Below, one piece after another: positions 1-64,000 of a DNA stretch of 64,000 nt; the first letter of the stretch is position 1, and each line of letters opens with the position of its first letter. The DNA is from Myxococcota bacterium (GTDB lineage: Bacteria; Myxococcota_A; UBA9160; SZUA-336). The stretch lies in NCBI GenBank assembly GCA_035498015.1, contig DATKAO010000018.1, forward strand, positions 1,835 through 65,834, in the 5' to 3' direction. A program made the translations under genes and the position numbers. The notes beneath the pieces are model-generated. The model ran no database searches and had not been told where the DNA came from. It saw nothing but the letters and a program-made list of their open reading frames with translations.

Positions 1-1
1 G

Positions 2-799
2 CCGTTCGTGCCCGCCGACTTTCCCGATCCGGCCAGGCGCCGCGCGCGCTTCGCCGCCTGGCGGCTCAACTGGCAGCCGGGCACGAAGTTCGAGTACCAC
101 CCGAGCTCGTCCATGTACGTGATCGCCGACATCATCGAGCGACTCAGCGGCCAGACCTACAGTGACTTCGTGCGCGAGCGCATCGCGCTGCCGCTCGGGC
201 TCGAGGACCTGTGGGTCGGCCTGCCGCGCGCGCTGCACGGACGCCTGGCCGACTGCGTGCACGTGGGCGAGGCGCTGACCGAGGCCGACTACGCCAAGCT
301 CGGCGTGCCCATGCCGCCGGTCACCGAGGTCACCGAGGAGGCGATCACCAGCTTCAACCGGCCCGAGGTGCGCACGGCCGGCATTCCCGGCGGCGGCGGC
401 ACGATGACCGCGGCCGAGCTCGCGCTCTTCTACCAGGGCCTGCTCGACGGCGGGAAGTCACTCGCCGGGCGCGAGCTGTGGAAGCCCGACACGCTGGCTT
501 CGGCGCGGCGCGTCCGCTCGGGCGACCTGCGCGACCTGTTGTTCAAGAAGCACGCGAACCGCGCGCTCGGCGTGATCGTCGCCGGTGACTCGGACCGCAC
601 TTACCGCGGCTTCGGTCACACCAACTCGGAGCTCGCGTTCGGCCACGGCGGCGCCGGCGGGCAGATCGGCTGGGCGGACCCCAAGACCGGGATCTCGGTC
701 GGCTACTGCACCGACGGCCACGACCGGAACAACATGCGCCAGGGCCGGCGCGGCGTGGGAATCTCGAGCCGCGCGGCGTCCTGTCTGCTCGCTTCTTGA
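2..799 (+). CDS. beta-lactamase-family serine hydrolase (EstB/PBP-like), C-terminal part; the 5' end is outside the window
   Basis: The ORF 8..799 is open to the left window edge. The C-terminal motif AFGHGGAGGQIGWADPKTGISVGY is typical of the class-C beta-lactamase/esterase family. GC3-rich codons. Confidence 0.55.
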   Translation, partial: PFVPADFPDPARRRARFAAWRLNWQPGTKFEYHPSSSMYVIADIIERLSGQTYSDFVRERIALPLGLEDLWVGLPRALHGRLADCVHVGEALTEADYAKLGVPMPPVTEVTEEAITSFNRPEVRTAGIPGGGGTMTAAELALFYQGLLDGGKSLAGRELWKPDTLASARRVRSGDLRDLLFKKHANRALGVIVAGDSDRTYRGFGHTNSELAFGHGGAGGQIGWADPKTGISVGYCTDGHDRNNMRQGRRGVGISSRAASCLLAS

Positions 800-2025
800 C
801 GAAGGACGAGTTCTTTCGGCGCGCGCGCACCGACCTGCCGGGGCCGCTGGCCGGCGTCCGCGTCATCGAGGCGACCACCACCTGGGCCGGGCCCATGTGC
901 GCCTGCGTGCTGGCCGACTTCGGCGCCGACGTGATCAAGGTCGAGCTGCCCGAAGGCGAGGTCGCGCGCCGGCTGCCGCCGTTCCTGCCGGGCGCCGAGC
1001 CGGGTCTCTCGTTCATGCACACCACGGTGAATCGCAACAAGCGCAGCCTGACGCTCGACCTGCGCCAGCCCGCGGGCCGTGACTTGTTTCTGCGACTCGC
1101 GCGCAGCGCCGACGTGGTGGTCGAGAACTTCCGCCCAGGCACGATGGCGGAATGGGGGCTCGGCTACGACGACGTGCACGCGGTGCGGCCCGACGTGGTC
1201 TACGTGTCGATCAGCGGCTTCGGCCAGTTCGGCCCCGACCGCGAGCGCGCGGGCTACGACCCCATGGCGCAGGCCGCCAGCGGCTGGCTGTCACTCAACG
1301 GCGAGCCGGGGGGGCCGCCGGTGAAGGCGCCGACCTTCATCGGCGACGACCTGGGCGGGCTGCACGGCGCGCTCGCGGCGCTGGCCGCGCTGCGCCACCG
1401 TGACCGCACGGGCGAAGGCCAGCACGTGGACGTGGCGCTGCAGGATGCGCTCTTGTTCCAGTCGAACGGCTACCCGATGCTGGCGGCGCTCGGCGTCGAC
1501 CTGCCGCGCATGGGCAGTCAGTTCGTGGTCGCCGCGCCGGCCGGGGTGTACCGCTGCAGCGACGGCTACGTGATGCTCGGCGTCCTGCTCGACGCGCACT
1601 GGCGCGTGCTGGCGGGCCTGCTGGGCCGGCCAGAGCTGGCGGACGATCCCGCCTACGCCACCGGCCGGCTGCGAGTCACCAGGCGCCCGGAGCTGAACGC
1701 GCTGATCGAGGCCTGGGTCGGGCCGCAGCGCGTGGCGGAGGTGGTCGAGACACTCGTGGCGGCGCGGCTCCCCGCCTCGGCCGTGCGCCGCTACGCCGAC
1801 GCCGCCGGCGACCCTCACGTGCGCGAGCGCGACATGCTGCAGAGCGTGGAGCTCGAGAACGGCCAGCGGGCGCCGCTGGTCGGCCCGGCCGCGAAGTTCT
1901 CGCGCACGCCCGTCGGCGTGCGGGCCGCGGCGCCGGCGCTCGGCGCGCACACCGACGAGCTGCTCGAAGAGCTGGGAGTGACTCCCGGCGAGCGCGCCCG
2001 GCTGCGGGAGCGCGGAGTCATCTGA
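796..2025 (+). CDS. CoA-transferase family III (CaiB/BaiF-like)
   Basis: 409-aa ORF with VIEATTTWAGPMCACVLADFGADVIKVE and ENFRPGTMAEWGLGYDDV motifs typical of family-III CoA transferases. 4-nt overlap with the upstream gene. Confidence 0.85.
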   Translation: MTKDEFFRRARTDLPGPLAGVRVIEATTTWAGPMCACVLADFGADVIKVELPEGEVARRLPPFLPGAEPGLSFMHTTVNRNKRSLTLDLRQPAGRDLFLRLARSADVVVENFRPGTMAEWGLGYDDVHAVRPDVVYVSISGFGQFGPDRERAGYDPMAQAASGWLSLNGEPGGPPVKAPTFIGDDLGGLHGALAALAALRHRDRTGEGQHVDVALQDALLFQSNGYPMLAALGVDLPRMGSQFVVAAPAGVYRCSDGYVMLGVLLDAHWRVLAGLLGRPELADDPAYATGRLRVTRRPELNALIEAWVGPQRVAEVVETLVAARLPASAVRRYADAAGDPHVRERDMLQSVELENGQRAPLVGPAAKFSRTPVGVRAAAPALGAHTDELLEELGVTPGERARLRERGVI

Positions 2026-2029
2026 GCCC

Positions 2030-2722
2030 ATGCGGCGGCTGGCGCTCGCGCTCGTGCTGTTCGCGCTCGCCTCGGTCGGGCCGGCGCGCGCGGCCGAGCC
2101 CACCGGCAGCGTGAAGGGCAGCGTGAAGGTGCTGAAGAAGGGCTTCTTCGGGCGCATCGGCGAGAGCGACGACAAGAGCGGCGTCTTGCTGTACGTGACC
2201 GGCTACGAGGAGCCGGCGCCCCGAGAGGTCGCGCAGCTCGTGCAGCAGAACGAGCGCTTTGCGCCGCGCCTCCTGCCGATCGTGGCCGGTCAGACGGTGA
2301 GCTTCCCGAACCGCGACCGCCTGTACCACAACGTGTTCTCGGTCGCGCCCGCGATGTCGTTCGACCTGGGTCAGTACAAGTCGAGCGACCCGCCGCGCAC
2401 CCAGACCTTCGACAAGCCCGGCCTCGTGCCCGTTTACTGCAACATCCACCCGCAGATGATCTCCTACGTGGTGGTGCTGGAAAACCGCGCGTTCGCGCTG
2501 ACCGGCGAGGACGGCGCGTTCGAGCTGCGCGGCGTGCGCGCGGGCAAGCACGCACTGAACGCCTGGATGCCCGGCGCGCAGCGGGTGACTCGCGACGTCG
2601 AGATACCCGCCGGCGGCGAGGTTGCGGTGGAGCTCACGCTCGAGCAGACCCAGGCGATCCCGCCGCACCTGCGCAAGGACGGCACGCCCTATCCGCCGCC
2701 GCCGACCTACGACGGGAATTGA
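2030..2722 (+). CDS. secreted cupredoxin-like (amicyanin-type C-x2-H-x2-M) protein
   Basis: Signal peptide MRRLALALVLFALASVGPARA. C-terminal VYCNIHPQM matches the type-1 copper ligand spacing C-x2-H-x2-M of amicyanin, and YHNVF is a candidate upstream His ligand. Stop 4 nt before the cyclase start. Confidence 0.55.
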   Translation: MRRLALALVLFALASVGPARAAEPTGSVKGSVKVLKKGFFGRIGESDDKSGVLLYVTGYEEPAPREVAQLVQQNERFAPRLLPIVAGQTVSFPNRDRLYHNVFSVAPAMSFDLGQYKSSDPPRTQTFDKPGLVPVYCNIHPQMISYVVVLENRAFALTGEDGAFELRGVRAGKHALNAWMPGAQRVTRDVEIPAGGEVAVELTLEQTQAIPPHLRKDGTPYPPPPTYDGN

Positions 2723-2725
2723 GCG

Positions 2726-4765
2726 ATGGCCGCGCGGCTGCGCCTGCGCTTCCGCACCAAGATCTGGATCGCCCTGTGCGGCCTGGTCGGCGTGGCGCTG
2801 GCCGTCGCGCTCGCGGTCGCCCAGGACGCAGCGCTGGAGCGCGTGCGCAGCGAGTCACGCGCGCGCTTCGACCGCACGCTCACCGCGTTCCACGAGCTGC
2901 AGCGGCTGCGCGCGCAGTACGCCTCGGCCGAGATCGACGCGCTCTCGCGCGCGAACCCGCAGCTGCGCACGATCCTGTCCACGGCCTCGCTGGCCGCGGC
3001 CGACCTGGGCTTCGGCGGCGCCGCGCCCGAGGACGCGCTGCACGACGCCAACCTGCGCCTGCAGTCGGCGCTGCCCTCGCTCGCCGCCAAGGAGAAGCTC
3101 GTGGTGTTCGCGCTGACCGACGCGCACGGGCGCCTGCTCTACAGCCGCGCCGACCCGGAGCGCTTCGGCCAGGACCTGCTCGCGCTCGGCCGCGTGAAGA
3201 GCGTGGCCGACGGCGCGCGCGCCACCTGGATCTGGCTCGACGGCGACGCCGTGGTCGGCGACGCGCGGCTGGCGCCCGCGTATCCGTCGCCGGCGCTGTA
3301 TCTCGTGCGCGGCGAGCCGGTGGTCTTCGACGACGAGGTGCACGGCATCGTGCTGCTGGGCGAGCCGCTCGACCGCGAGCTGCTCGAGTCACTGCGCGGG
3401 ATCACCGGCGTCGACCTGGCCCTGGTCTCGCGCGGACGGGTGATCGCGACCACGCTCTCGGCCGCGCACGAGGGCGCGCTGCCGGTCGCGCTCGAGCGCA
3501 TGGAGCGCGCCCGCGACCCGGGCCGCGGCATGGCCGAGCTGCAGCTCGACGACGAGCGCTTCCTGGCGCTGCGCTCGGAGCTCGACCCGGGCACGCCCCA
3601 GGCCGACGCCGGCTTCGTGCTCCTGACTTCGCTCTCGGGCGAGCTCGCCGCGTTCCGCGAGCTGCGCACGACACTCTCCGGTGTCGGCCTGCTCGTGCTC
3701 GCCGGCGCGCTCGGCGTCGGCTACGCGCTGGCGCGCGGCATCACCAACCCGCTCTCCGACCTGGGGCGCGCGGCGCGCCGCGTGGGCCGAGGCGACCTGG
3801 ACGCGCGCGTCTCGATCGCGACCGGCGACGAGCTCGAATCACTCGGCGACGCCTTCAACGAGATGGCCGCGGGCCTGCGCGAGCGCGAGCTGATCAAGAG
3901 CACGCTCGAGCGCTACGTGAGCAAGAAGGTCGCGGCCGAGCTGCTGCGCGACCCGGGCCGCGTGACTCTGGCCGGCGCGCGCCGCGAGCTGACGGTGATG
4001 TTCGTCGACCTCGGCGGCTTCACGGCGCTGGCCGAGGAGCTCCCGCCCGAAGTCGTGGTCGCCCACCTGAACGAGTATTTCGAGGCGGTGTGCGGCGCCG
4101 TGCTCGAGGAGGACGGCACGGTCAAGGAGTTCCAGGGCGACGGCGTGGTGGCGTTCTGGGGCGCGCCCATCCCGCAGCCCGACCACGCGCCCCGCGCGTG
4201 CCGCGCCGCGCTCGCCGCCGCGGCGCGCCTCGACGCGCTGCGCGGCCGCTGGGAGCGGCGCGGAGTGATTGCCCCGAGCTACCGCCTGGGCTTGCACAGC
4301 GCGGAGCTGGTGGCGGGCGAGATCGGCTCGGCCGAGCGCGGCGCGTACGGGATCGTGGGCGACGGCATGAACCTCGCCGCGCGCATCGAGGGCGCGAACA
4401 AGCTCTACGGCACGCGCTTGCTCGTCTCCGAAGCCACGCGCGAGCGGCTCGGTGCCGGGTTCCTGCTGCGCGAGCTCGACCGCGTGCGCGTGGTCGGCCG
4501 CCGCCAGCCCGTGCGGCTGTTCGAGCTGATCGCGCAGGACTCCGCCGCCACCCCGCAGGCGCGGCGCGCGTGTGCGCTCTACGAGCGCGCGCTCGCCGCG
4601 TACCGCGCGCGCGCGTTCGGAGAGTCACTGCGCGCGCTCGACGAGCTCCTGGCAGCGGCGCCGGACGACGCCCCGGCGCGGTTCCTGCGCGCGCGCGTCA
4701 GCGAGCTCGAGTCGAGCCCGCCGCCGGCCGACTGGGACGCCGTGCTCGCGCTCGAGACCAAGTGA
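2726..4765 (+). CDS. membrane adenylate/guanylate cyclase with periplasmic sensor region, HAMP domain and C-terminal TPR-like tail
   Basis: N-terminal TM helix, about 280-aa extracytoplasmic region, second TM, HAMP (LSDLGRAARRVGRGDLDARV). Class III cyclase motifs LTVMFVDLGGFTALAEEL, FQGDGVVAFWGAP, GIVGDGMNLAARIEG. Confidence 0.85.
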   Translation: MAARLRLRFRTKIWIALCGLVGVALAVALAVAQDAALERVRSESRARFDRTLTAFHELQRLRAQYASAEIDALSRANPQLRTILSTASLAAADLGFGGAAPEDALHDANLRLQSALPSLAAKEKLVVFALTDAHGRLLYSRADPERFGQDLLALGRVKSVADGARATWIWLDGDAVVGDARLAPAYPSPALYLVRGEPVVFDDEVHGIVLLGEPLDRELLESLRGITGVDLALVSRGRVIATTLSAAHEGALPVALERMERARDPGRGMAELQLDDERFLALRSELDPGTPQADAGFVLLTSLSGELAAFRELRTTLSGVGLLVLAGALGVGYALARGITNPLSDLGRAARRVGRGDLDARVSIATGDELESLGDAFNEMAAGLRERELIKSTLERYVSKKVAAELLRDPGRVTLAGARRELTVMFVDLGGFTALAEELPPEVVVAHLNEYFEAVCGAVLEEDGTVKEFQGDGVVAFWGAPIPQPDHAPRACRAALAAAARLDALRGRWERRGVIAPSYRLGLHSAELVAGEIGSAERGAYGIVGDGMNLAARIEGANKLYGTRLLVSEATRERLGAGFLLRELDRVRVVGRRQPVRLFELIAQDSAATPQARRACALYERALAAYRARAFGESLRALDELLAAAPDDAPARFLRARVSELESSPPPADWDAVLALETK

Positions 4766-5534
4766 GTCCCAGCGCCGCCAGCGCCAGCAGTCCGGCCGCG
4801 CCGGGCTCCGGCACGATCGCGAAGGCGTCGACGTCGCTCGCGTAGGCGTCACCGGCGTCCTGGAACACGCGCACGTACTGGATCCAGGGCAGGCCGAGCG
4901 CGGCCAGGTCGACGCCCACACCGCCGCCGCCGCCCGCGTAGAGCGCCGCGATCTCGGCCGTCGTCTTGCCCGCGAAGTCGCCGAGCCCGAGCGCCGGGTC
5001 GACGGGCTGGGTGTAGCGGGTCGGGATCGAGCCGTCGGAGCCGAAGGGGTCGGTCACGTCCTGGTACGCCAGCGTCGGGAACATGCCGTCGGCAGTCACT
5101 GTCGCGGTGTACCAGGTCACGCCGTCCTGACTCACCGCGATGCGCGCCGGCTCGGCGAACACCGTGCCGTCGGCGAGACCGGTGTTGAAGTCGATGCCCA
5201 GGAAGGCGTTTCCGTACACCAGGAGGTCGATGCCGTACGGGTTGGCGCCGTCGTCGGCGACGGGGTGGTCGAAGCGCACCGTGAGCTGTCCGCCGGCGCC
5301 GATCGAGACCACGTCGCTCGACTGGTACGGCGCGTTGAACGGCGTGAGCGACCCGTCGAACGGGCCCGTGCCGGTGGCGCGCCCCGGCGAGCCGAGCGCC
5401 ACGTTCGGGTCCGTGTAGCCCGCGCTGACGTTCGAGCCGGGCGTGTAACTCACGACCTCGCTGGCAAAGGAGGACGCGAGCACACGCGTGGCCAGGGACG
5501 AAAAGACGACGGCGGTGAGCGCGATGGCTCTCAT
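4698..5534 (-). CDS. PEP-CTERM sorting-signal secreted protein
   Basis: N-terminal signal peptide. C-terminus IVPEPGAAGLLALAALGLTWSRARARR has the PEP motif, a hydrophobic helix and an Arg-rich tail. GGAGG-type RBS before the ATG at 5534. The 3' end overlaps the cyclase 3' end by 68 nt. Confidence 0.7.
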   Translation of the reverse strand: MRAIALTAVVFSSLATRVLASSFASEVVSYTPGSNVSAGYTDPNVALGSPGRATGTGPFDGSLTPFNAPYQSSDVVSIGAGGQLTVRFDHPVADDGANPYGIDLLVYGNAFLGIDFNTGLADGTVFAEPARIAVSQDGVTWYTATVTADGMFPTLAYQDVTDPFGSDGSIPTRYTQPVDPALGLGDFAGKTTAEIAALYAGGGGGVGVDLAALGLPWIQYVRVFQDAGDAYASDVDAFAIVPEPGAAGLLALAALGLTWSRARARRPSRPAAGSTRAR

Positions 5535-6020: not shown

Positions 6021-6061
6021 AGCGCTCGGGACGAAGTCCCGCTCTCCGAGGAGGGAGTCAC

Positions 6062-8110
6062 TTGGCGTCGTCTCGACTCACTTGCGCGGCCCTGGCGTGC
6101 GTACTGGCTGCACGCAGCGTGCTCGCGGGCGAGCTGCACGAGTCGGCGGACGACCCGTCGGCGTTCTCGACCGTGATCGACGCCACGAAGTACGACGATC
6201 GCTTCGCCACCGTCGAGGAATTGCTCGACCAGGTGCCCGGCGCGAAGGTGACTCGCAGCGGGGGAATCGGCTCGCGCAGCACGCTCGGGCTGCGCGGCTC
6301 CAAGCCCGAGCAGGTGCTGGTGCTGCTCGACGGCGTCCGGCTCAATTCACCCGAGCGCGGCGCGGCGGACCTGTCGACCATCCCCGTGCGCCAGGTCCAA
6401 GAGATCGAAGTGATTCGCGGCGGCGGCGCCGCGCGCTTCGGCAGCGACGCCGTCGGCGGCGTGGTGCTGATCACCACGCGCAAGGCCGCGAGCGACGGCC
6501 CGCACGCCGACGCGTCGCTCACGGCCGGCAGCACCACGCTGCGCGGCGGCGACATCACGCTCTCGGGCGCGGGCGACCGCGGCAGCGCGCTCCTGAGTTA
6601 CTCGCGGCTCTCGGCCCGGAACGACTATCTCTTCGACCTGCCGTCGCGCGATCCGGGCCGGACCTTCACGTTCCGCCGGCTGAACGCCGACTCCAGCGAG
6701 GACTCCGGGCTGCTGCGCGGCAGCCTGCTCCTGGGTCAGTTCACCAGCCTCGATGCGTCCGTCGATCTCTACCGGCGCGACGGCGGCCAGCCGGGCAGCG
6801 TGTACGGCAAGCCGCGCGAGAACGCGACCAGCGAGGACATCTCGTGCACGACCAGCGACGAGAGCTACCAGCGCGGCCTGGCCCGGCTCGCGCTCGTGAG
6901 TCAGCGTTTCCTCGGCGGCGCCTTCGAGCTCGCGGGCTCGGTGCGCAGCGACGACGACGACCTCGAGGACCCCGGCGGCGCCTGCGGCTTCGTGAGCCCG
7001 CTGAACACGGGCGGCCGCGACAGCGCGTCGTGGCGCGAGCGCGAGTCGGCGCTCGAGACCAGTTGGTCCGCCGAGCGAGTCACTTGGGACTGGGTCGAGC
7101 TCTCCGGGCGTGCGGTGGCCGGCCTGCGCTACACCACGGTCGACTCTTCCGACGCGGACCTGCACCGGCGCACGCTCGGCTCGGTGTCACTCCTGCCGGA
7201 GCTCGCGTTCTTCGGGCGCACGCTGCGCATCCTGCCCGGCTTCGGCGTCGAGCTGGCGAGCTCGAGCTCGGGGCTGGCGCGCTCGTCGGTGTCGCAGTCG
7301 TTCGTCGAGACACAGCCGCACGATCCGACCGCGTGGCTGCCGGCCGTGGGCGCGATCCTGGAAGTCGCGCCCGGCTTCCGCTTCAAAGCCAACTGGAAGC
7401 GCGTGCTGCGCCGGCCCACGTTCACGGAGCTCTACCACCCCGACTGGACCTTCATCCGCGGCAACCCCGAGCTCGAGCCCGAGCGCGGCTGGAACGCCGA
7501 CGTGGGCTTCGAGCTGGCGTCGGACGGCGCGGGCTGGGTGCGCGACCTGGGGCTGCAGGTGAGTCTCTTCCAGCGCGAGCTCGACCAGGGCATCGAGTGG
7601 CTGTTGAGCCGGGGCAACAGCTACATGCCGCTCAACACCGGCCCGCAGCGCGCGCTCGGCGGCGAGCTGTCGTTCCAGTCCACCTGGCTGCGCGTGCTCG
7701 AGCTCGGCGGCTCCTACACCTACACCGACGCGCGCTATCTCGACCGGTCACAGGCGGGCGTGGCTTTCGACAGCGGCATCCGGCCCGTGGTGCCTCACGT
7801 GCCCATGAACTCGGTCTCGGCCAACGCCGCGCTCGAGCTGGGCGTGCTGCGGCCATGGGCGCAGCTGCACTACGACAGCGACTTCGCCTACCGCGTGGGA
7901 CAGGTGCCGCTGGCGCCGGCGACCTTCGTGGTGAACGCCGGCGTGGTGCTGCGGCCGAACCGCATTCCGCGGCTCCAGTTCCTGCCCGACACGCTCGCGC
8001 TGTCGCTCGAGGCGAGCAATCTCGGTCACGAGCAGCGCTACGACTCGTTCGGCCAGCCGCTCTCGCGACAGACGCTCTGGGTGGTGCGTATCCGCGGGGC
8101 CGCGCCGTGA
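6062..8110 (+). CDS. btuB: TonB-dependent outer-membrane receptor, BtuB-like (vitamin B12 transporter)
   Basis: TTG start after a strong RBS. Signal peptide, then plug-domain motifs (VTRSGGIGSRSTLGLRGSKPEQVLVLLDGVRLN, EIEVIRGGGAARFGSDAVGGVVLITT). Directly preceded by a cobalamin riboswitch. Confidence 0.8.
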   Translation: MASSRLTCAALACVLAARSVLAGELHESADDPSAFSTVIDATKYDDRFATVEELLDQVPGAKVTRSGGIGSRSTLGLRGSKPEQVLVLLDGVRLNSPERGAADLSTIPVRQVQEIEVIRGGGAARFGSDAVGGVVLITTRKAASDGPHADASLTAGSTTLRGGDITLSGAGDRGSALLSYSRLSARNDYLFDLPSRDPGRTFTFRRLNADSSEDSGLLRGSLLLGQFTSLDASVDLYRRDGGQPGSVYGKPRENATSEDISCTTSDESYQRGLARLALVSQRFLGGAFELAGSVRSDDDDLEDPGGACGFVSPLNTGGRDSASWRERESALETSWSAERVTWDWVELSGRAVAGLRYTTVDSSDADLHRRTLGSVSLLPELAFFGRTLRILPGFGVELASSSSGLARSSVSQSFVETQPHDPTAWLPAVGAILEVAPGFRFKANWKRVLRRPTFTELYHPDWTFIRGNPELEPERGWNADVGFELASDGAGWVRDLGLQVSLFQRELDQGIEWLLSRGNSYMPLNTGPQRALGGELSFQSTWLRVLELGGSYTYTDARYLDRSQAGVAFDSGIRPVVPHVPMNSVSANAALELGVLRPWAQLHYDSDFAYRVGQVPLAPATFVVNAGVVLRPNRIPRLQFLPDTLALSLEASNLGHEQRYDSFGQPLSRQTLWVVRIRGAAP

Positions 8111-9864: not shown

Positions 9865-9875
9865 ACTGCGCGGCC

Positions 9876-10607: not shown

Positions 10608-10681
10608 GCCACTCCTTAGACTCGACTCACGACGAGTGCGAGCGGAGCCGGCGGGAGAGCGACCTGCTACCCAAGCGCTTC

Positions 10682-19100: not shown

Positions 19101-19105
19101 GTCAG

Positions 19106-20060: not shown

Positions 20061-20071
20061 GGTGACTCCTC

Positions 20072-24142: not shown

Positions 24143-24187
24143 CTCGCCGGCCGGCTGCGCCGGAGCGCGCCCGCTACTCTCCCTCGA

Positions 24188-33905: not shown

Positions 33906-34010
33906 CCGCAAAGACCCAGGCGTGAGTCATGAGTAGCTTGTTAGCTGCGCCGGGTCACTGCACGCGACTACACAATTGTGTGACGGACCACGGCGCGGAC
34001 CCGAAGCGCG

Positions 34011-39358: not shown

Positions 39359-39558
39359 CTTCGGGGCGGTTCCGATGCGAGCCCATGGCGAGCTTCATGG
39401 CGATGGTCGTCGCCTCGCTCGTGGGGCTCGGGCTGCGCGACCCGTTGGACGGGCTGTTCGGCGTGGTGCCCGGCGAGGCGCTCGGGCTGGTCGTCGGCTT
39501 GGTGGTGTACTTCTACGCGCGCCGCTGGCTTCGCGAGCTGCGCGGAGAGTGAGTCGAC

Positions 39559-41669: not shown

Positions 41670-41679
41670 GCCCCGCGAC

Positions 41680-56265: not shown

Positions 56266-56979
56266 ATGCATCGCAACTTGTCCCCCTGGCTCCGGAGGGG
56301 CGTCGTGGCCGTGGCAGGCTTCGCGCTCTTGTTCGGGGCCTCGCTCAGCGCTCGAGCGGGCTCGCTCGTCGGCGTATACCAGAAGAACGGCTTCGAGTAT
56401 CTCGTGAACCTGGGCACCGGCGTCGGGCCACTCACTTACGACGCGAACATCACCGAGTTCGGAGGCTCCACCGCCGGTGCGCTCTTCAGCGTCGTCGGCG
56501 TCGTCGACCGCAACCTGGTGGATGACTTCGGAAGCGCGATCGGCAACATCGAGTACAGCAAGACCGGCTCGCCAGGCTCGCTCAGCGACGACGCGATCCT
56601 CACGGCGGGAACCCGCGTCGCGGGCTTCGGCACTTCGGACTCGTGGTTCGACCTGATCCCGGCGATCGCCAACGGCGCGCCCGGGACTCACACCACGATT
56701 CCCAACAACCTCGTCAACTCCTTCGCGGTGCGAGTCGACAACACCTTCTTCGGCGCCTTCCCCTTCTCGATCGCCGGGACGATCGCAGCCGACGGCACGC
56801 TCACGACCTCGGTGTACCAAGCCATCTCGAGCAGTGACGTCAACGGCACGCCCCAGGTGAACAGCTTGCTCGTGACTCTGCATGTGACACCCACGGGTCT
56901 GGCTCCGGAGCCCATGAGCATGGTGCTGATCGGCGTGGCCCTCGCGGGCGTCGCCGCCGTGCGCCGCCGCTCCGCCTGA
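56266..56979 (+). CDS. PEP-CTERM sorting-signal secreted protein
   Basis: GGAGGG RBS, signal peptide, C-terminal TGLAPEPMSMVLIGVALAGVAAVRRRSA. Confidence 0.7.
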   Translation: MHRNLSPWLRRGVVAVAGFALLFGASLSARAGSLVGVYQKNGFEYLVNLGTGVGPLTYDANITEFGGSTAGALFSVVGVVDRNLVDDFGSAIGNIEYSKTGSPGSLSDDAILTAGTRVAGFGTSDSWFDLIPAIANGAPGTHTTIPNNLVNSFAVRVDNTFFGAFPFSIAGTIAADGTLTTSVYQAISSSDVNGTPQVNSLLVTLHVTPTGLAPEPMSMVLIGVALAGVAAVRRRSA

Positions 56980-57042
56980 TCGCTCGACTCACTTTCCGCA
57001 TCAAGCGAACCCTCTCGTAACCCCTTTGTGGAGAACCTACAG

Positions 57043-58897: not shown

Positions 58898-59005
58898 AAT
58901 CTCACGGTTCCTTCGCGAACGCGGAGAGACTCACACGCAACCTTCACAGAACCGAGAGATCTCCTTCACGAGAGCGCTACAGAGCAGGTGCTAGGTTGCC
59001 TGGGG

Positions 59006-60859
59006 ATGCGGGGCCGGGAGCTCATTGCAGTTCTATTTGTCGTGGTGTCGTTCGCGCTCGCCCGGACGGCGAGCGCCGACGACGCCGGTGCGTCGACGTT
59101 CGCCTCGGGTGAGCGTCTGTACCGCACGCGCAAGTGGACGATGGACGAGATCCCGGTGCCGGCGCGACCCGTGGCGCGAGCTGCGCCCGAGGTCAAGGCT
59201 CCGAACGGCCCGGTCTTCGCGATCCGCCGCTTCGAGATCGTCGGAAACACTCTTCTGCCCAGGGACGAGGTCGACAAGACGCTCGCGCCCTACGTGACTC
59301 CCAAGGCGACCTTCGACACGATCGAGCAAGCGCGCGACGCGCTGCAGCAGCGCTACGCGAGCGACGGCTTCATCGCGGTGGCGGTCGGCGTGCCACCGCA
59401 GACCGTCGAGAGCGGGAGCGTGCGCCTCGACGTGGCCGAGGCGCGCATCGGCAACGTCACGGTCGAGAACGAAGGCCAGCGCTGGATCTCCGACGCACGC
59501 GTCCGTGCGCTGACTCCTCACATCCAGTCCGGCGCGATCCTGCGCGAGTCGGACCTGCGCCAGGACCTGACCGCGGCCAACACGAGCGCCGATCGCATCA
59601 TCCGGCCGGTGCTGACCGCGGGCAAGCAGCCGGGGATCGTCGACGTGAAGCTGATCGTCGACGACCAGGCGCCCGTGCACGCCTCGGTGAATCTCGACAA
59701 CGACCGCACCCCGGGATCGCCTCACTCCCGCCTCGAGACGAACTTCAACTACAACAACCTCTGGGACCTCGACCACGCGCTGGGTCTCACCTACATCACG
59801 TCTCCCACCGACTCCAGCGCGGTGCTGATCGGCACCGCCAACTACAGCGCGCCGATGCCCTGGAACCCGAACGAGCAGCTCATGGGTTACTGGGCCTACT
59901 CGGACACGTTCAGCAACGTGCCGCTGGTCCCGGGTCTGGGCAGCCTCGGCAACGGGCAGAGCTTCGGCCTGCGCTACAACGTCGCGGCGCCGGATTTCTC
60001 GGTCTGGGAGAAGCCGGTACGCGCCGGAATCACCGCGGGCGTCGACTACAAGGACATCCACAGCACGCTGCGGCAGGACTCGAACGACCCGAACCAGTCG
60101 GGCGCCGAGATCAAGACCCCGATCCGCTACCTCCCGTTCCTGCTCAACCTGTGGACGAGCTACACCGGCCGCGACGACTTCCTGGCCGCGTCGGTCGGCG
60201 ATCACTGGAACTACGCAGGGCTCGTCTCGGGCGGCAGCAGCGACGACTTCCGCGCGAATCGCTCCGCGAACAACGTGGATGGCAACTACCACGTCATGGT
60301 GTGGACCGCCGACTGGCGGCACCGGCTCTCGATGGCCGACGGCGAGAGCTGGCTGGCCAACCTGAGTCAGTCGGCGCTCGGTCCGCTATGGCCGCACACG
60401 GGCATCCCTCCCGAAGCGATCGGCTTGTTCGACGACTGGGCGCTCAGCGTGCACGTCAACGGCCAGCTCGCGAGTCAGCCGCTGATTCCCACCGAGCAGT
60501 ACGCCGCGGGCGGCGTGAGCAGCGTGCGCGGCTACCTGCAGAGCGAGATCTTCGGCGACTCCGCCTGGGCTTTCAACATCGAGCTCTGGACGCGCCGTTA
60601 CTCGTTCCCGATCGGCGCGGCCGGCTATCCGTTCGACCTGCGGCCCTCGGCGTTCTGGGACCACGCCTGCATGCACAACCTCGATCCCGGCGAAGGCGAG
60701 AAGTCGGGTCAGTGCATGTCCTCGGTCGGTCTGGGGCTGCAGCTCGCGGTCACACGCTGGTTCACGGGTCAGCTTTATCTCGCCGACCCGCTCGACACCA
60801 CCCCCAATACGACGGCCGGCAACGTCCGGCTCCATTTCCGCCTGACGGGCGGCTTCTGA
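59006..60859 (+). CDS. TPS outer-membrane transporter (TpsB; ShlB/FhaC/HecB family)
   Basis: Signal peptide from the ATG at 59006 (within ORF 58895..60859). POTRA region FAIRRFEIVGNTLLPRDEVDKTL...RLDVAEARIGNVTVEN, C-terminal beta-barrel ending RLTGGF. Confidence 0.8.
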   Translation: MRGRELIAVLFVVVSFALARTASADDAGASTFASGERLYRTRKWTMDEIPVPARPVARAAPEVKAPNGPVFAIRRFEIVGNTLLPRDEVDKTLAPYVTPKATFDTIEQARDALQQRYASDGFIAVAVGVPPQTVESGSVRLDVAEARIGNVTVENEGQRWISDARVRALTPHIQSGAILRESDLRQDLTAANTSADRIIRPVLTAGKQPGIVDVKLIVDDQAPVHASVNLDNDRTPGSPHSRLETNFNYNNLWDLDHALGLTYITSPTDSSAVLIGTANYSAPMPWNPNEQLMGYWAYSDTFSNVPLVPGLGSLGNGQSFGLRYNVAAPDFSVWEKPVRAGITAGVDYKDIHSTLRQDSNDPNQSGAEIKTPIRYLPFLLNLWTSYTGRDDFLAASVGDHWNYAGLVSGGSSDDFRANRSANNVDGNYHVMVWTADWRHRLSMADGESWLANLSQSALGPLWPHTGIPPEAIGLFDDWALSVHVNGQLASQPLIPTEQYAAGGVSSVRGYLQSEIFGDSAWAFNIELWTRRYSFPIGAAGYPFDLRPSAFWDHACMHNLDPGEGEKSGQCMSSVGLGLQLAVTRWFTGQLYLADPLDTTPNTTAGNVRLHFRLTGGF

Positions 60860-60872: not shown

Positions 60873-62459
60873 ATGCACCACCGCGCCGCCCGATGCCTCT
60901 CTTTGGCCGCCGTTGTGACACTGTACTGTGTCACAGGCATCGCCTTCGCCGACGATGCGCAGCCTCCGAAGCCCTCCGACGCCGCGGCCGGCATGCTCGA
61001 TGCGATGCGCGAGAAGGGCATCATCACCGAGGCCGAGTACGAGGATCTCTACAAACGCCAGGCCCTGTACGAGATGGAGCAGAAGGAGGCCTCGGCGCTG
61101 CCCGCCTGGCTGCGCGACTGGACCTTCGGCGGTGACGCCGGCGTGCGCTTCGACGAAGTCGACCGCGGCGGCAAGATCAAGCTGAACAAGCCGCTCTTCT
61201 CGAGCCAGGACCCGGTGAATCTCACCGACGGGACCGCGAGCGCGAAGCGCGACCGCTTCCGCTTCCGGCTGCGGCTCGGCGCCGAGCGCAAGCTCGGCGA
61301 CGATTTCCTGGTCGGCTTCCGGATCGCCACGGCCCAGGCCAGCGCCTTCGGCGTCGACGCGAGCAGCCAGAACACGCTCGGCGTCAACTTCTCGCGCCGC
61401 TTCAACACGGACCCCCGGTCCGCGTGGGTGACGGCGGGTGACTACTTCGCGCCGAAGGGCATTGCGGTCGACCGGATCTACATCCAGTGGGCGCCGCACC
61501 TCGTCGACGGCCTCTCCTTCCAGGTCGGCAAGATGGAGAACGCTTTCTGGTCGCGTGACTTCTCCGGCGACATCATGGTCTGGGACCACGACATCAGCCC
61601 CGAGGGCGGGCTGATCCAGTACGGCCACAGCTTCTTCGGCGAGCGAATGTGGGTGCACGTGCGCGGGTCGTACTTCCAGGTCGACGAGGTCCCGAACGCG
61701 ACCATCCCGGGTCCGCTGCCCGCCACCGACGGCAGCTCGACCTTCCCGCCCGACGTGGACGAGAAGGACCCGTTCATGTACGCGGCACAGGTCGATTTCT
61801 CGGGCGACGTGACTCCCTGGCTGCGCGCAGGTGCGCGCGTGTCCTACTACGACGTGAAGGACGTGAACATGCGGTTTGCCGCCGCGAGCGAGGATCTCGG
61901 AAACGGCGGCGCGTCGATCAAGAACAACCCGCTGCTCGCGATCTTCACGCCGGCGCTCACCGACGGCCGCTCGCGGGGTGAGATGCGCGAGATCGTCTAC
62001 GACATGTTCATGAAGTTCACGCCCTGGGAAGGCTGGTCGCTCACGCCGTGGTTCCAGCTCACGCACATGTTCGAGGTGTCGAGCGAGAACTACGGCTACG
62101 ACACCGGCTTCGACCTCCTCGCGCCCACCAATACCAAGCTCACCTTCATGTGGGCGTCGATGCCGAGGAACGGGACGATGGCGGTGTTCACCGACTCCGA
62201 CTTCTTCGACGGCTACACGAACGCGCGCGGCTGGGGGCTCAGCCTGGAGCAGGCGATCAACCGCTGGGTGTCGCTGCGCGGCAGCTATCTCTCGTCCACC
62301 GAGCGCAGCAAGAACTGCGGCGCTTTCGAAGGCTCGGGAGCGAGCCAGCTCTGTGACACCGCCTTCTGGGGAGGCACCCCACCTTCCGCGCTCGGCAACT
62401 TCCGCCGCCAGGTCCTCGACCGGGATCGCATCCTGGTCGACCTCTTGGTCAAGTTCTGA
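60873..62459 (+). CDS. outer-membrane beta-barrel (putative porin)
   Basis: Signal peptide, alternating amphipathic strands, C-terminal ...LLVKF (terminal Phe). Confidence 0.5.
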   Translation: MHHRAARCLSLAAVVTLYCVTGIAFADDAQPPKPSDAAAGMLDAMREKGIITEAEYEDLYKRQALYEMEQKEASALPAWLRDWTFGGDAGVRFDEVDRGGKIKLNKPLFSSQDPVNLTDGTASAKRDRFRFRLRLGAERKLGDDFLVGFRIATAQASAFGVDASSQNTLGVNFSRRFNTDPRSAWVTAGDYFAPKGIAVDRIYIQWAPHLVDGLSFQVGKMENAFWSRDFSGDIMVWDHDISPEGGLIQYGHSFFGERMWVHVRGSYFQVDEVPNATIPGPLPATDGSSTFPPDVDEKDPFMYAAQVDFSGDVTPWLRAGARVSYYDVKDVNMRFAAASEDLGNGGASIKNNPLLAIFTPALTDGRSRGEMREIVYDMFMKFTPWEGWSLTPWFQLTHMFEVSSENYGYDTGFDLLAPTNTKLTFMWASMPRNGTMAVFTDSDFFDGYTNARGWGLSLEQAINRWVSLRGSYLSSTERSKNCGAFEGSGASQLCDTAFWGGTPPSALGNFRRQVLDRDRILVDLLVKF

Positions 62460-62464
62460 CTCCC

Positions 62465-62872
62465 GTGCGAACGCTGGCAGTCACACTCGCGTTCGCGCTG
62501 ACTCTCGCGAGCTCGCTCTCGTGCAAGCCCGAGGACCCGGCCCCGCTCGAAGCCGAGCGCGCGAAGCTTTTGGAGAGCACGGTCCCGAAGGACGACTACT
62601 GGCGCGAGGTCGAGCGCAAAGGAAGCGCGCTCAAGACCCAGAAGGCCGCGGCTCAGCGCAGCGCGCGCGCCGCCGCGGACCGAGCGCAGATCGAGCCCGC
62701 CATCGAGCAGATGCGCAAGGCGCTTGCCGACGCCAAGCAAGTCAATGCGCAGGTCGAGGAGCAGGTCGCCGGCCTGGACGCGCAGAGCAAGAAGCTGCAC
62801 GCGCGCCAGCAGGAGCTGGAGAGCTATCTCGCGCGCACCGGTCCGCCCGACGTCGGGGCCAAGAAGCCGTGA
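62465..62872 (+). CDS. coiled-coil lipoprotein
   Basis: GTG start. Lipobox LASSLSC, then coiled-coil-forming Ala/Gln/Lys/Glu-rich sequence. Confidence 0.5.
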   Translation: MRTLAVTLAFALTLASSLSCKPEDPAPLEAERAKLLESTVPKDDYWREVERKGSALKTQKAAAQRSARAAADRAQIEPAIEQMRKALADAKQVNAQVEEQVAGLDAQSKKLHARQQELESYLARTGPPDVGAKKP

Positions 62873-63522
62873 CTCGCCGCGCCGGCGCGCTCGTGCTCGC
62901 GCTGCTGCTGCTCGGCTGCGGCGAGGACAAGGTCACTCCGCTGCGCGAAGAGATCGCGAAGCTGAAGAAGGAGCGCGTGCCCGCCGAGCAGCTCGAGACG
63001 GCCAAGAAGGAGGCCGGCGAGGCCGAGACGTCGCGAGACGCGGCGCTTGCGCGCGCGGATGCCGACGAGGCCGGGATCGCCGCGCAGCGCGCGGAGCTCG
63101 AGCGCCTGCGTGGCGCCCTGCAGCACGAGGTGGACCGGAACACGGAGCTGAGAGCGGCCATCGACGCGCGCCAGCAGCCGCTCGCGAACGCCGTGTCGGG
63201 AGTCAATGACCTCGAGGTGCGCGCGAACGAGCGGCGCCGCTATCTGACGACGCTGCGCGATCAGGCGAAGGCGCTCGCGAAGGCGCTCACGCCCGAAGAC
63301 CCCGCCTGGGCCGACAAGCGCCGGCTCGCGGCCGTCGGCGACTTCGAGCGCGCGCTTCGGGAGCAGCTCCCCGGCGAGCCACAGGTCCAGGACCTGGGCC
63401 GGCAGCTGGTGGCGACCCCGCCCGACAAGGCGGCGCTCGTCGCTTCGCTGCAGTCCGTCGCCGAGCTCCTGGACCGCAGGGTCGGGGAGGCGGCCTCGGC
63501 GGCCGCCGCAACGGGCAAATGA
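62869..63522 (+). CDS. coiled-coil lipoprotein
   Basis: GTG overlapping the upstream stop. Lipobox LLLLGC, then an extended coiled coil. Confidence 0.5.
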   Translation: MTRRAGALVLALLLLGCGEDKVTPLREEIAKLKKERVPAEQLETAKKEAGEAETSRDAALARADADEAGIAAQRAELERLRGALQHEVDRNTELRAAIDARQQPLANAVSGVNDLEVRANERRRYLTTLRDQAKALAKALTPEDPAWADKRRLAAVGDFERALREQLPGEPQVQDLGRQLVATPPDKAALVASLQSVAELLDRRVGEAASAAAATGK

Positions 63523-64000
63523 CCGCGTCGCTCGCGCAGCGACTCACTCGGCTCGCGCCCGGCCTCGTGCTGGTGGCGTGCGCCGCCGTGCTGTACGCGC
63601 GCAGCCTGTCCGCGCCGTTCGTGTTCGATGACCTGCCCTCGATCGTCGAGAACCAGAACGTCCGGGCGCTGTGGCCGCTCTCGCGCGCGCTCGGCTCTCC
63701 TGCGCAGTCGAGCGTCGCCGGGCGTCCGCTCGCCAGCCTGTCTTTCGCCGTCAGCTACGCCGCGTTCGGGCTCGATCCGCGGGGCTGGCGCGCGCTGAAC
63801 GTGGCGCTGCACGCCGCGTGCGCGCTGCTGCTGTTCGGCCTGGTGCGACGCAGCCTCGAGCGAGTCACCGAGCGCGCCGGACTCGCCGGCTCGGCGCGCG
63901 GCCTCGCGTTCGCGAGCGCGCTGTTGTGGACCGTCCATCCGCTCGTGACCGAGTCGGTGGCCTACGTGACTCAGCGGACGGAGCTGCTCGTGGCGCTGGC
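63519..64000 (+). CDS. polytopic membrane protein, TMTC/PMT-like (GT-C type?) N-terminal part; continues beyond the window
   Basis: ATG overlapping the upstream stop. YARSLSAPFVFDDLPSIVENQNVR and a hydrophobic ALNVALHAACALLLFGLV helix, typical of TPR-containing PMT_2-type proteins. Confidence 0.45.
   Translation, partial: MTASLAQRLTRLAPGLVLVACAAVLYARSLSAPFVFDDLPSIVENQNVRALWPLSRALGSPAQSSVAGRPLASLSFAVSYAAFGLDPRGWRALNVALHAACALLLFGLVRRSLERVTERAGLAGSARGLAFASALLWTVHPLVTESVAYVTQRTELLVAL

Follow-up and report, generated by a model that had tools for sequence, protein, structure and literature searches.

The word GAGTCAC in a 64-kb window of a myxobacterial chromosome

The stretch analyzed here (the window) comprises 64,000 nucleotides of contig DATKAO010000018.1, bacterial chromosomal DNA of 70.4% G+C from an uncultured soil myxobacterium. 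Genes were called by third-position G+C, giving 52-53 genes, ∼87-90% coding sequence and a third-position G+C fraction of ∼0.9. They have ordinary housekeeping and envelope functions. Among them are genes for TonB-dependent receptors, ExbB/ExbD/TonB, a zinc ABC transporter, a two-partner secretion pair, two PilT/PilB-type ATPases, acyl-CoA dehydrogenases, a RapA/HepA-like helicase, polyphosphate kinase and a phosphatase. The subject of this report is a short word, the heptamer GAGTCAC and its variant GACTCAC, which together with the complements GTGACTC and GTGAGTC recurs at high density over this DNA. No clear foreign island was seen in the window, and the two-partner secretion region has a normal density of sites.

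Exact counting on the top strand gave 26 copies of GAGTCAC, 21 of GACTCAC, 31 of GTGACTC and 14 of GTGAGTC, a sum of 92 sites or 1 per 696 bp. Base composition predicts ∼3.1-3.2 copies per heptamer and ∼13 for all four. A preliminary description of the same letters had put the number at ∼85-90 against ∼13, and the excess in the window is confirmed as real. A 3rd-order Markov model predicted 12.6 copies of GAGTCAC plus complement, where 57 were counted, and 2.8 copies of AGTCACT/AGTGACT, where 37 were counted. Shuffling of synonymous codons within genes gave an expectation of 24.6 for the 92 sites of the whole window (including ∼16 unshuffled non-genic sites). When synonymous codons were pooled across genes, 77 genic sites were observed against 7.7 ± 2.6 expected (10-fold, z = 26), and against 18.0 ± 3.9 (4.3-fold, z = 15) when codon-boundary dinucleotides were preserved as well. 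Many of the rare codons that precede a C are themselves copies of the word, so this stricter null inherits part of the signal, which places the true excess at 4- to 10-fold. In the 64-kb window each of these codon-aware and Markov nulls was exceeded by more than the two-fold line drawn in the preliminary description. A within-gene shuffle preserving dinucleotides (expectation 27) was set aside for the pooled version, since its groups were too small and the original arrangement was mostly kept. Ranked against synonymous shuffles, GAGTCAC was the first of all 7-mers (z = 24.7), and the top 6-mers were AGTCAC and GAGTCA.

Enrichment rose with word length from AGTCA (2.4-fold) through AGTCAC (4.2-fold) to GAGTCAC (5.5-fold) and then reached a plateau, with 5.0-fold for GAGTCACT, 6.5-fold for CGAGTCAC and ∼7-fold for GAGTCACTC, the last from 10 sites only. 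As there was no growth past the 7-mer, the selected unit is the asymmetric heptamer GAGTCAC, with GACTCAC as a weaker variant, and not a 9-mer quasi-palindrome as first described. The 9-10-mers listed earlier are present, 0-26 nt from the coordinates then given. The palindromic form GAGTSACTC occurs at 1976, 10128, 12721, 21369, 24137, 24848, 26553, 38905, 44541 and 46990 (10 against 0.84 expected); it accounts for a minority of the sites (10/92), with a fold enrichment no higher than that of the 7-mer. On either strand the consensus is [G>A]-A-[G>C]-T-C-A-C. The T often found 3′ of the word reflects coding context, namely the Leu codon CTN after GAG-TCA. Flanks past ±2 nt are unrelated among copies, so the word does not belong to a dispersed repeat element. 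Two perfect palindromic dimers were also found, GAGTCAGCTGACTC at 16489 and ATGAGTCAT at 25492.

Enrichment extended to one-off variants in which positions 2, 4 and 6 all remain A/T, among them AAGTCAC (14 against 1.8 expected), GACTCAC (35 against 13.4), GAGTGAC (26 against 7.5) and GAGACAC (17 against 5.9). Variants with A/T replaced by G/C at one of these positions were at or below expectation (GCGTCAC 10 against 20.8; GAGCCAC 8 against 12.4). Ratios of observed to expected counts were 5.45, 1.61 and 0.99 for zero, one and two mismatches. The reverse, non-complement word CACTGAG was not enriched (3 against 6.2 expected). The 5-mers GASTC (200 against 124.5) and GTSAC (202 against 151.6) were enriched through the 7-mer only. 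Alternating strong/weak runs in general (SWSWSWS, 446 against 282) were considered and rejected as the underlying property, as these were mostly GAGTCAC and its one-off neighbours and many other alternating words were at or below expectation.

The two orientations were equally frequent (47 and 45), with 13/14, 8/11, 11/11 and 15/9 in successive 16-kb quarters. Spacing was Poisson-like (coefficient of variation 1.13) without promoter clustering, and no clustering, pairing or regular spacing above chance was found in the window other than three overlapping GTGASTCAC pairs and one gap. Both orientations, this spacing and the unenriched reverse word point to recognition of duplex DNA. The gap is a 6.2-kb interval between 13626 and 19810 without any site (P ∼0.007 if sites were placed at random). 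The genes in it are conserved ones, namely RapA in part, MgtE and those for a TetR regulator and an acyl-CoA dehydrogenase, and it contains the 14-bp palindrome at 16489.

Some 84% of sites were in coding sequence, without indels relative to orthologues, and ∼15 sites were non-genic. The genic sites use 10 word-and-phase combinations, each needing a rare A/T-ending codon; the contexts include GAG-TCA-C, GTG-ACT-C, GTG-AGT-C, xGA-GTC-AC, xGA-CTC-AC, xxG-AGT-CAC and xxG-ACT-CAC. The Ser codon TCA, often used in GAG-TCA-CTS (E-S-L), was present in 13/16 GAG-TCN-C contexts and makes up 7% of TCN overall. ACT was present in 16/22 GTG-ACN-C contexts (8% overall), GGA or CGA in 12/15 [GC]GN-GTC-AC contexts (3-6% overall) and AGT in 7/7 G-AGY-CAC contexts (12% overall). 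When all positions at which one of the four words was synonymously accessible were enumerated, 76/200 (38%) were occupied, against 6.8 (∼3%) expected from codon usage. Of 32 TGA stop codons, five are embedded in a copy of the word (G-TGA-STC), at 4762, 24139, 39549, 41677 and 62869, and two genes end in AGT-CAC-TGA (sites 36653 and 50044); the word seems to find unconstrained room at the ends of genes.

As the sites fall in all three codon phases and both orientations, between genes and over stop codons, the data show that the force acts on the DNA word and not on protein or translation, as had been proposed from the rare Ser codon. They also show that this force prevails over a third-position codon bias of 92% G/C and alters amino acids.

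Carriers, non-carriers and gain of sites

Syntenic DNA of relatives was fetched via polyphosphate kinase (L081 and L001) and via RapA (L161-L168). The window has 1.44 sites/kb. Densities were 0.90 sites/kb in L165 (5/9 accessible positions occupied), 0.83 in L162 (15/43), 0.91 in L163 (14/36) and 0.68 in L081 (13/78, 17%), and fell to 0.36 in L168 (5/63), 0.15 in L164 (2/20) and 0.09 in L001 (2/45). No site was found in L167 (0/37), L005 (0/22), L045 (0/40) or 7.9 kb of the divergent part of L166 (0/7). Occupancy of accessible positions was 35-56% in the window, L165, L162 and L163, and 0-10% in L164, divergent L166, L167, L001, L005 and L045. In a RapA tree the carriers lie in one subclade, with L164 and L166 branching just outside. 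The comparison with related genomes recommended in the preliminary description thus showed the word to be confined to a narrow clade of Myxococcota metagenome genomes, with immediate sister lineages lacking it.

L168, from a sister clade outside the carrier subclade (RapA 79% identical), gave a weak signal: AGTGACTC occurred 5 times against 0.3 expected, and the 5/63 accessible positions occupied compare with 1.8 expected (example sites 15071, 15234, 16376, 17249 and 17267). Window sites 6055 and 6075, which precede the TonB receptor gene, are both common to L168. L166 (ENA ERZ27256607 k141_3799938), aligned to window 4316-10660, was rejected as a carrier and classed as word-free; all 12 of its sites fall within 4 kb that are 99.8% identical to the window (7 mismatches over 4316-8300), and the divergent 7.9 kb has none. 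From ∼8.6 kb, inside a gene, identity falls abruptly to ∼77%; either two lineages have recombined recently or the metagenome assembly is a chimera.

The alignment to L081 took in 33 window sites, 6 of them common to both, and that to L001 took in 12, none of them present there; L001 mostly has a G/C-rich ancestral form at these positions, for example GCGTGAC. For 24 window-specific genic sites compared with L081/L001 orthologues, 12 involved synonymous changes only and 12 an amino-acid change. Synonymous gains were often double (GGC-GTG-ACC to GGA-GTC-ACC, GTC-ACG-CGG to GTG-ACT-CGC, GTC-ACA-CAC to GTG-ACT-CAC, CGC-CTG-ACG to CGA-CTC-ACG). Amino-acid changes included RAT to RVT and VAR to VTR. 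The gains required six or more kinds of substitution, G/C transversions among them, so no single mutational bias explains them. The accessible positions themselves are commoner in the window than in word-free relatives, so the proteins have been shifted too.

Sites were also retained in excess. Between the window and L162/L163, 8/18 sites were identical, compared with 16% of matched 7-mers with rare third-position A/T (P = 0.004-0.005); for L081 the 6/33 identical sites compare with 7% in the matched control (P = 0.027). In word-free relatives conservation was at the control level. These comparisons show a force switched on recently, at about genus level, which keeps sites only in the lineages carrying the enrichment.

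That the word has no function and results from codon-pair bias, from mutation that depends on sequence context or from a small number of repeated protein motifs is hard to maintain on this evidence. Strong codon-boundary biases independent of GAGTCAC do exist in the window (GCTCGAG/CTCGAGC 143 against 64 expected from synonymous shuffles, TCGA 718 against 512, CGAG/CTCG 1915 against 1463), and preserving boundary dinucleotides raises the genic expectation from 7.7 to 18. The excess nevertheless survives that strictest null, and the sites are spread over >40 genes, 10 codon contexts, intergenic DNA and stop codons, which speaks against the repeated protein motifs raised earlier as an alternative. 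Gains need many substitution types, often two together, and non-carrier relatives that match the window in codon usage and G+C content do without the word, above-control conservation being confined to carriers. A by-product is therefore highly improbable and already largely refuted.

All 92 sites and the pair of PilT/PilB-type ATPase genes are collected in the table below.

Coordinates of GAGTCAC and GACTCAC sites and of the PilT/PilB-type ATPase genes in the window, with codon context and state in relatives (CDS, coding sequence; "outside CDS" is relative to our own gene calls)
Feature	Position	Strand	Context	Relatives
GAGTCAC	585..591	-	CDS 2-799(+), GGT-GAC-TCG = GDS	
GAGTCAC	1673..1679	+	CDS 796-2025(+), CGA-GTC-ACC = RVT	
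GAGTCAC	1978..1984	-	CDS 796-2025(+), GTG-ACT-CCC = VTP	
GAGTCAC	2585..2591	-	CDS 2030-2722(+), GTG-ACT-CGC = VTR	
GAGTCAC	2852..2858	+	CDS 2726-4765(+), GAG-TCA-CGC = ESR	
GAGTCAC	3386..3392	+	CDS 2726-4765(+), GAG-TCA-CTG = ESL	
GAGTCAC	3962..3968	-	CDS 2726-4765(+), GTG-ACT-CTG = VTL	
GAGTCAC	4622..4628	+	CDS 2726-4765(+), GAG-TCA-CTG = ESL	
GACTCAC	4762..4768	-	includes TGA stop of CDS 2726-4765(+)	
GACTCAC	5129..5135	+	outside CDS	
GAGTCAC	6055..6061	+	intergenic, cobalamin riboswitch / TonB receptor gene	present in L168
GACTCAC	6075..6081	+	intergenic or TonB receptor gene start	L168 GAGTCAC
GAGTCAC	6248..6254	-	CDS 6119-8110(+), GTG-ACT-CGC = VTR	
GACTCAC	6896..6902	-	CDS 6119-8110(+), GTG-AGT-CAG = VSQ	
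GAGTCAC	7077..7083	+	CDS 6119-8110(+), CGA-GTC-ACT = RVT	
GACTCAC	7559..7565	-	CDS 6119-8110(+), GTG-AGT-CTC = VSL	
GACTCAC	8194..8200	-	CDS 8107-9864(+), GTG-AGT-CCG = VSP	
GAGTCAC	8293..8299	-	CDS 8107-9864(+), GTG-ACT-CCG = VTP	
GAGTCAC	8462..8468	+	CDS 8107-9864(+), GGA-GTC-ACG = GVT	
GAGTCAC	8972..8978	+	CDS 8107-9864(+), GGA-GTC-ACC = GVT	
GACTCAC	9428..9434	+	CDS 8107-9864(+), GGA-CTC-ACG = GLT	
GAGTCAC	10128..10134	+	CDS 9876-10607(+), GAG-TCA-CTC = ESL	kept in L162/L163
GACTCAC	10624..10630	+	outside CDS	
GACTCAC	10907..10913	-	CDS 10636-12555(+), AGT-GAG-TCT = SES	
GAGTCAC	12723..12729	-	CDS 12556-14916(-), GAG-TCA-CTC = ESL	kept in L161, L165, L162, L163; GCGACTC/GCGATTC/GCAGCTC in motif-poor L164, L166, L167, L168
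GAGTCAC	13014..13020	-	CDS 12556-14916(-), GAG-TCA-CTG = ESL	kept in L161, L165, L162, L163
GAGTCAC	13626..13632	-	CDS 12556-14916(-), GAG-TCA-CTG = ESL	kept in L161, L165, L162, L163
GAGTCAC	19810..19816	-	CDS 19179-20048(-), GGA-GTC-ACC = GVT	kept in L162/L163
GAGTCAC	19849..19855	-	CDS 19179-20048(-), GGA-GTC-ACC = GVT	kept in L162/L163/L164
GAGTCAC	20062..20068	-	short intergenic spacer, overlaps GGAGGAG ribosome-binding-like run	
GAGTCAC	21371..21377	-	CDS 21090-22154(-), GAG-TCA-CTC = ESL	kept in L162/L163; GCGACTC in L164/L167
GAGTCAC	22440..22446	-	CDS 22168-23649(-), GAG-TCA-CTG = ESL	kept in L162/L163; GCGACTC in L164/L167/L168
GACTCAC	23340..23346	-	CDS 22168-23649(-), GAC-TCA-CCC = DSP	
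GAGTCAC	24139..24145	-	includes TGA stop of CDS 23756-24142(+)	
GAGTCAC	24848..24854	+	CDS 24188-25441(+), GAG-TCA-CTC = ESL	
GAGTCAC	24993..24999	+	CDS 24188-25441(+), GGA-GTC-ACG = GVT	
GAGTCAC	25844..25850	-	CDS 25432-26220(-), GGA-GTC-ACT = GVT	
GACTCAC	26022..26028	+	CDS 25432-26220(-), GTG-AGT-CGC = VSR	
GAGTCAC	26555..26561	-	CDS 26217-27122(-), GAG-TCA-CTC = ESL	
GAGTCAC	26757..26763	-	CDS 26217-27122(-), GCG-AGT-CAC = ASH	
GAGTCAC	28144..28150	+	CDS 27570-28928(+), CGA-GTC-ACC = RVT	
GACTCAC	28621..28627	+	CDS 27570-28928(+), GGA-CTC-ACC = GLT	
GAGTCAC	28646..28652	+	CDS 27570-28928(+), GAG-AGT-CAC = ESH	
GACTCAC	30801..30807	-	CDS 29943-32195(+), GTG-AGT-CTC = VSL	
GACTCAC	31309..31315	+	CDS 29943-32195(+), CGA-CTC-ACG = RLT	
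GACTCAC	31539..31545	+	CDS 29943-32195(+), GAC-TCA-CCC = DSP	
GAGTCAC	32482..32488	+	CDS 32197-32844(+), GAG-TCA-CGC = ESR	
GACTCAC	33922..33928	-	outside CDS	
GAGTCAC	34236..34242	+	outside CDS	
GACTCAC	34568..34574	+	CDS 34511-35749(+), GAC-TCA-CAA = DSQ	
GAGTCAC	35719..35725	+	CDS 34511-35749(+), GGG-AGT-CAC = GSH	common to L081
GACTCAC	36199..36205	+	CDS 35811-36662(+), GGA-CTC-ACG = GLT	
GAGTCAC	36653..36659	+	CDS 35811-36662(+), GGG-AGT-CAC then TGA stop	
GAGTCAC	37227..37233	-	CDS 36663-37316(+), GTG-ACT-CAC = VTH	L081 GTC-ACA-CAC, peptide unchanged
GACTCAC	37229..37235	+	overlaps site 37227..37233 (GTGACTCAC)	
GAGTCAC	38327..38333	-	CDS 37313-38668(+), GTG-ACT-CGC = VTR	L081 VAR
GAGTCAC	38907..38913	-	CDS 38714-39358(+), AGT-GAC-TCG = SDS	
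GACTCAC	39549..39555	-	includes TGA stop of CDS 39385-39552(+)	
GAGTCAC	41275..41281	+	CDS 40872-41669(+), GGA-GTC-ACC = GVT	L081 and L001 both GGC-GTG-ACC = GVT, so two synonymous changes created the word
GACTCAC	41677..41683	+	includes TGA stop of CDS 41680-42813(-)	
GAGTCAC	42227..42233	-	CDS 41680-42813(-), CGA-GTC-ACG = RVT	L081/L001 RAT
GACTCAC	42365..42371	-	CDS 41680-42813(-), CGA-CTC-ACC = RLT	L081/L001 RLS
GACTCAC	43079..43085	-	CDS 42821-43999(-), CTG-ACT-CAC = LTH	common to L081; L001 CTC-ACG-CAC
GACTCAC	43404..43410	-	CDS 42821-43999(-), CGA-CTC-ACG = RLT	L081 CGC-CTG-ACG, peptide unchanged
GAGTCAC	44541..44547	+	CDS 44074-45417(-), GTG-ACT-CGC = VTR	common to L081; L001 GTC-ACG-CGT, peptide unchanged
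GAGTCAC	46092..46098	+	CDS 45565-47649(-), GTG-ACT-CTG = VTL	L081 ATM, L001 ATL
GACTCAC	46946..46952	-	CDS 45565-47649(-), CGA-CTC-ACG = RLT	L081/L001 CGG-CTC-ACG
GAGTCAC	46992..46998	-	CDS 45565-47649(-), GAG-TCA-CTC = ESL	L081 GAG-TCG-CTG
GAGTCAC	48232..48238	+	CDS 47780-48334(-), GTG-ACT-CGC = VTR	L081 GTC-ACG-CGG, peptide unchanged
GAGTCAC	48348..48354	+	outside CDS, 14 nt upstream of a called start	
GACTCAC	49520..49526	+	CDS 49334-50053(+), GAC-TCA-CTG = DSL	L081 GAC-TCG-CTC
GACTCAC	49758..49764	+	CDS 49334-50053(+), GGA-CTC-ACC = GLT	L081 GGG-CTG-ACC
GAGTCAC	50044..50050	+	CDS 49334-50053(+), GCG-AGT-CAC then TGA stop	
GACTCAC	50929..50935	-	CDS 50464-51120(+), GTG-AGT-CAC = VSH (GTGAGTCAC, two overlapping sites)	
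GAGTCAC	50931..50937	+	overlaps site 50929..50935	
GAGTCAC	51897..51903	-	CDS 51107-56086(+), GGT-GAC-TCC = GDS	
GAGTCAC	52472..52478	-	CDS 51107-56086(+), GTG-ACT-CGC = VTR	common to L081
GAGTCAC	52549..52555	+	CDS 51107-56086(+), GGG-AGT-CAC = GSH	L081 GGC-AGT-CAC
GACTCAC	53182..53188	+	CDS 51107-56086(+), GCG-ACT-CAC = ATH	
GAGTCAC	54278..54284	-	CDS 51107-56086(+), GTG-ACT-CAC = VTH	common to L081
GACTCAC	54280..54286	+	overlaps site 54278..54284	
GACTCAC	54580..54586	+	CDS 51107-56086(+), CCG-ACT-CAC = PTH	common to L081
GACTCAC	56685..56691	+	CDS 56266-56979(+), GGG-ACT-CAC = GTH	L081 GGC-ACG-CAC, peptide unchanged
GAGTCAC	56872..56878	-	CDS 56266-56979(+), GTG-ACT-CTG = VTL	
GACTCAC	56986..56992	+	outside CDS	
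GACTCAC	58928..58934	+	outside CDS	
GAGTCAC	59294..59300	-	CDS 59042-60859(+), GTG-ACT-CCC = VTP	
GAGTCAC	61809..61815	-	CDS 60993-62459(+), GTG-ACT-CCC = VTP	
GAGTCAC	62869..62875	-	includes TGA stop of CDS 62465-62872(+)	
GACTCAC	63541..63547	+	CDS 63519-63998(+), CGA-CTC-ACT = RLT	
GAGTCAC	63862..63868	+	CDS 63519-63998(+), CGA-GTC-ACC = RVT	
GAGTCAC	63966..63972	-	CDS 63519-63998(+), GTG-ACT-CAG = VTQ	
PilT/PilB-type (type II/IV secretion) ATPase gene, adjacent pair	21090-22154	-		kept at same place in all relatives fetched
PilT/PilB-type (type II/IV secretion) ATPase gene, adjacent pair	22168-23649	-		kept at same place in all relatives fetched

Several other features were recorded. A divergent pair of cobalamin riboswitches lies at 5576-5748 (-) and 5852-6036 (+), with scores of 103.8 and 87.1 bits, the second upstream of the TonB-dependent receptor gene (6062-8110). 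No tRNA genes were found in a tRNA scan of the window, and neither this nor the Rfam scan returned anything tied to GAGTCAC. The 10-bp palindrome ACGCCGGCGT occurs four times in the window (7935, 27883, 50849 and 61135) and three times in L081 (6022, 10209 and 11667), where a 3rd-order Markov model predicts well below one each, and TCGTGCACGA has four copies in the window; these numbers are small and the copies may be peptide motifs. The idea that each lineage has an iterated palindrome of its own (ATGATCAT in L001, ATGCGCAT in L045, CGCTAGCG in L081) was rejected, as there were only 3-4 sites each, whose palindromy had led to double counting, and one or more of them belong to a conserved peptide motif that the window has too.

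Candidate roles of the word

Three roles remain on the short list: a DNA-binding site, a methylation or repair target, and an uptake or recombination signal.

Under methylation-linked biased repair, an orphan or restriction-modification methyltransferase would mark the word or an embedded site such as GASTC or GTSAC, and methylation-dependent short-patch repair would convert near-matches. This is said to be Elhai's model for the highly iterated palindrome (HIP) sequences of cyanobacteria. The word can be read as an overlap of the palindromic 5-mers GAGTC (a GANTC site) and GTCAC (a GTSAC site), and the one-off variants with G/C at the A/T positions, at or below expectation, also speak for this model. 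The sharp on/off pattern among close relatives would suit mobile methyltransferase genes, and HIP variants track methyltransferases of matching specificity (PMC4390886). Known very-short-patch repair, however, converts T:G to C:G at one position, the wrong direction, whereas here all three A/T and several G/C positions are driven by the range of substitutions described above. The 5-mers have no enrichment of their own, the word is not palindromic and no methyltransferase gene was found in the 64-kb window, so that we consider this explanation unlikely.

The site of an abundant chromosome-organizing or nucleoid-associated protein, kept by ordinary selection at each copy, also has a low probability in our estimate. 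Xu, Lawrence and Durand have reportedly proposed such a function for HIP1. Graded tolerance of one-off variants, with three critical A/T positions, suits protein-DNA affinity, as does a genome-wide, strand-symmetric spread without promoter clustering. Conservation within the clade above matched controls is an argument that has been applied to HIP1 (PMC5861425). With thousands of sites per genome, however, the fitness effect of a single site should be minute, yet the word beats codon bias at ∼40% of accessible positions and alters amino acids. Spacing is not regular, sister lineages manage without the word and no candidate protein was found.

The reading that we favour, tentatively, is that GAGTCAC may be a lineage-specific, near-saturating recognition word on double-stranded DNA that serves as a self-tag in uptake or recombination. 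It is favoured because, among established processes, only molecular drive from biased DNA uptake and recombination makes a short word without symmetry accumulate in every frame and either orientation while also producing a mismatch gradient and altering peptides (PMC1939737, PMC2817400). The uptake sequences of Pasteurellaceae and Neisseriaceae have been explained by such drive, which is now proposed for cyanobacterial HIP1 too. No protein partner of GAGTCAC was found within the window, so we infer the mechanism. A sequence-specific protein of a DNA uptake or recombination pathway would bind the word, and word-bearing fragments or alleles from relatives would preferentially be taken up or recombined. 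Mutations creating the word would therefore spread through biased transmission, and the word would come to label DNA as self or close kin.

Several points weigh against this. The lineage is uncultured, and the sequence basis is the 64-kb window plus ∼110 kb from relatives, all from metagenome assemblies with our own gene calls. Neither an uptake receptor nor a competence regulator, methyltransferase or nuclease was found within the 64-kb window, and the PilT/PilB-type ATPases are generic type IV pilus parts that by themselves prove nothing about competence. Excess site conservation is equally expected under direct selection for a binding site. The sole possible trace of recombination, in L166, could equally be an assembly chimera. 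Known uptake sequences have cores of 9-12 bp plus flanks, against 7 bp here, and tend to use preferred codons (PMC2817400), whereas GAGTCAC always costs a rare one. The claim that it is a true uptake or recombination self-recognition sequence, the first in Myxococcota, must be called doubtful. The probability left over was assigned to something not yet imagined.

If that claim were true, this would be the first such sequence outside Neisseriaceae and Pasteurellaceae (plus, putatively, cyanobacterial HIP1), and so recent that sister lineages with and without the word remain syntenic at ∼80-85% nucleotide identity. The receptor could then be identified by comparing genomes, which would also show the birth of an uptake specificity, and placing the word in constructs could make these uncultured myxobacteria easier to reach genetically. 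Few groups of bacteria are known to have short words that saturate the genome, and each earlier case exposed a major process, sequence-specific DNA uptake or, for HIP1, methylation-linked transformation. The present case extends this to another phylum and to a different type of word, seven bases long, asymmetric and spelled in rare codons of a 70% G+C genome. A limited literature search with GAGTCAC itself returned primer matches only, and in the same search no abundant oligonucleotide or uptake sequence was found described for myxobacteria or Myxococcota. The syntenic close sisters, some with 35-56% of permissible positions occupied by the word and others without it, constitute an unusually clean natural experiment; this contrast makes testable how such words originate and spread, by drive or by selection, and which protein reads them. 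When metagenome contigs are binned, the word can also serve as a strong taxonomic marker of the clade.

Comparison with known systems

Repetitive extragenic palindromic (REP) and miniature inverted-repeat (MITE-like) elements differ from GAGTCAC, whose flanks are unrelated and whose sites are mostly coding and free of indels against orthologues. Chi, the FtsK-orienting polar sequences (KOPS) and architecture-imparting words resemble it as over-represented short oligomers read by a DNA-processing machine. All of these are strongly skewed to one strand per replichore, whereas GAGTCAC shows no strand skew in any 16-kb quarter, and Chi and KOPS are excluded for that reason, as in the preliminary description.

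A periodicity of 10-90 kb has been reported for HIP1 (GCGATCGC). Like GAGTCAC, HIP1 and the alternate HIPs are hyper-abundant, frame-independent and conserved above expectation (PMC5861425), and in some related lineages they are missing or another word takes their place (PMC4390886). In Synechococcus, transformation is made more efficient by HIP1 (10.1101/2024.09.10.611283). What HIP1 does is still under debate, and recent work connects it with transformation (10.1101/2024.09.10.611283; 10.64898/2026.06.24.733823). Unlike GAGTCAC, HIP1 is perfectly palindromic over its 8 bp, and it is nested on the GATC and CGATCG methylation sites. The earlier preference for HIP1 over DNA uptake sequences, argued from the latter being non-palindromic, therefore fails, and symmetry sides with the uptake sequences.

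These are the DNA uptake sequences (DUS) of Neisseriaceae, with the minor pilin ComP of Neisseria as an example of a receptor, and the uptake signal sequences (USS) of Pasteurellaceae, such as those of Haemophilus. They differ from GAGTCAC in having 9-12 bp cores with flanking AT tracts; the host here is a 70% G+C member of the Myxococcota, and no terminator-forming inverted pairs were seen in the window. USS favour frames with preferred codons (PMC2817400). GAGTCAC resembles them in density, in its even distribution over the strands, in core asymmetry, in mismatch gradient and in lineage boundaries. DUS and USS are short words with an asymmetric core that occur at ∼1 per kb in both orientations and all frames, in genic and intergenic DNA, and reshape peptide frequencies (PMC2817400). 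Their one-mismatch forms are enriched in a graded way (PMC1939737), and they are lineage-specific with sharp boundaries, forming dialects (PMC3630211), as GAGTCAC is confined to its clade.

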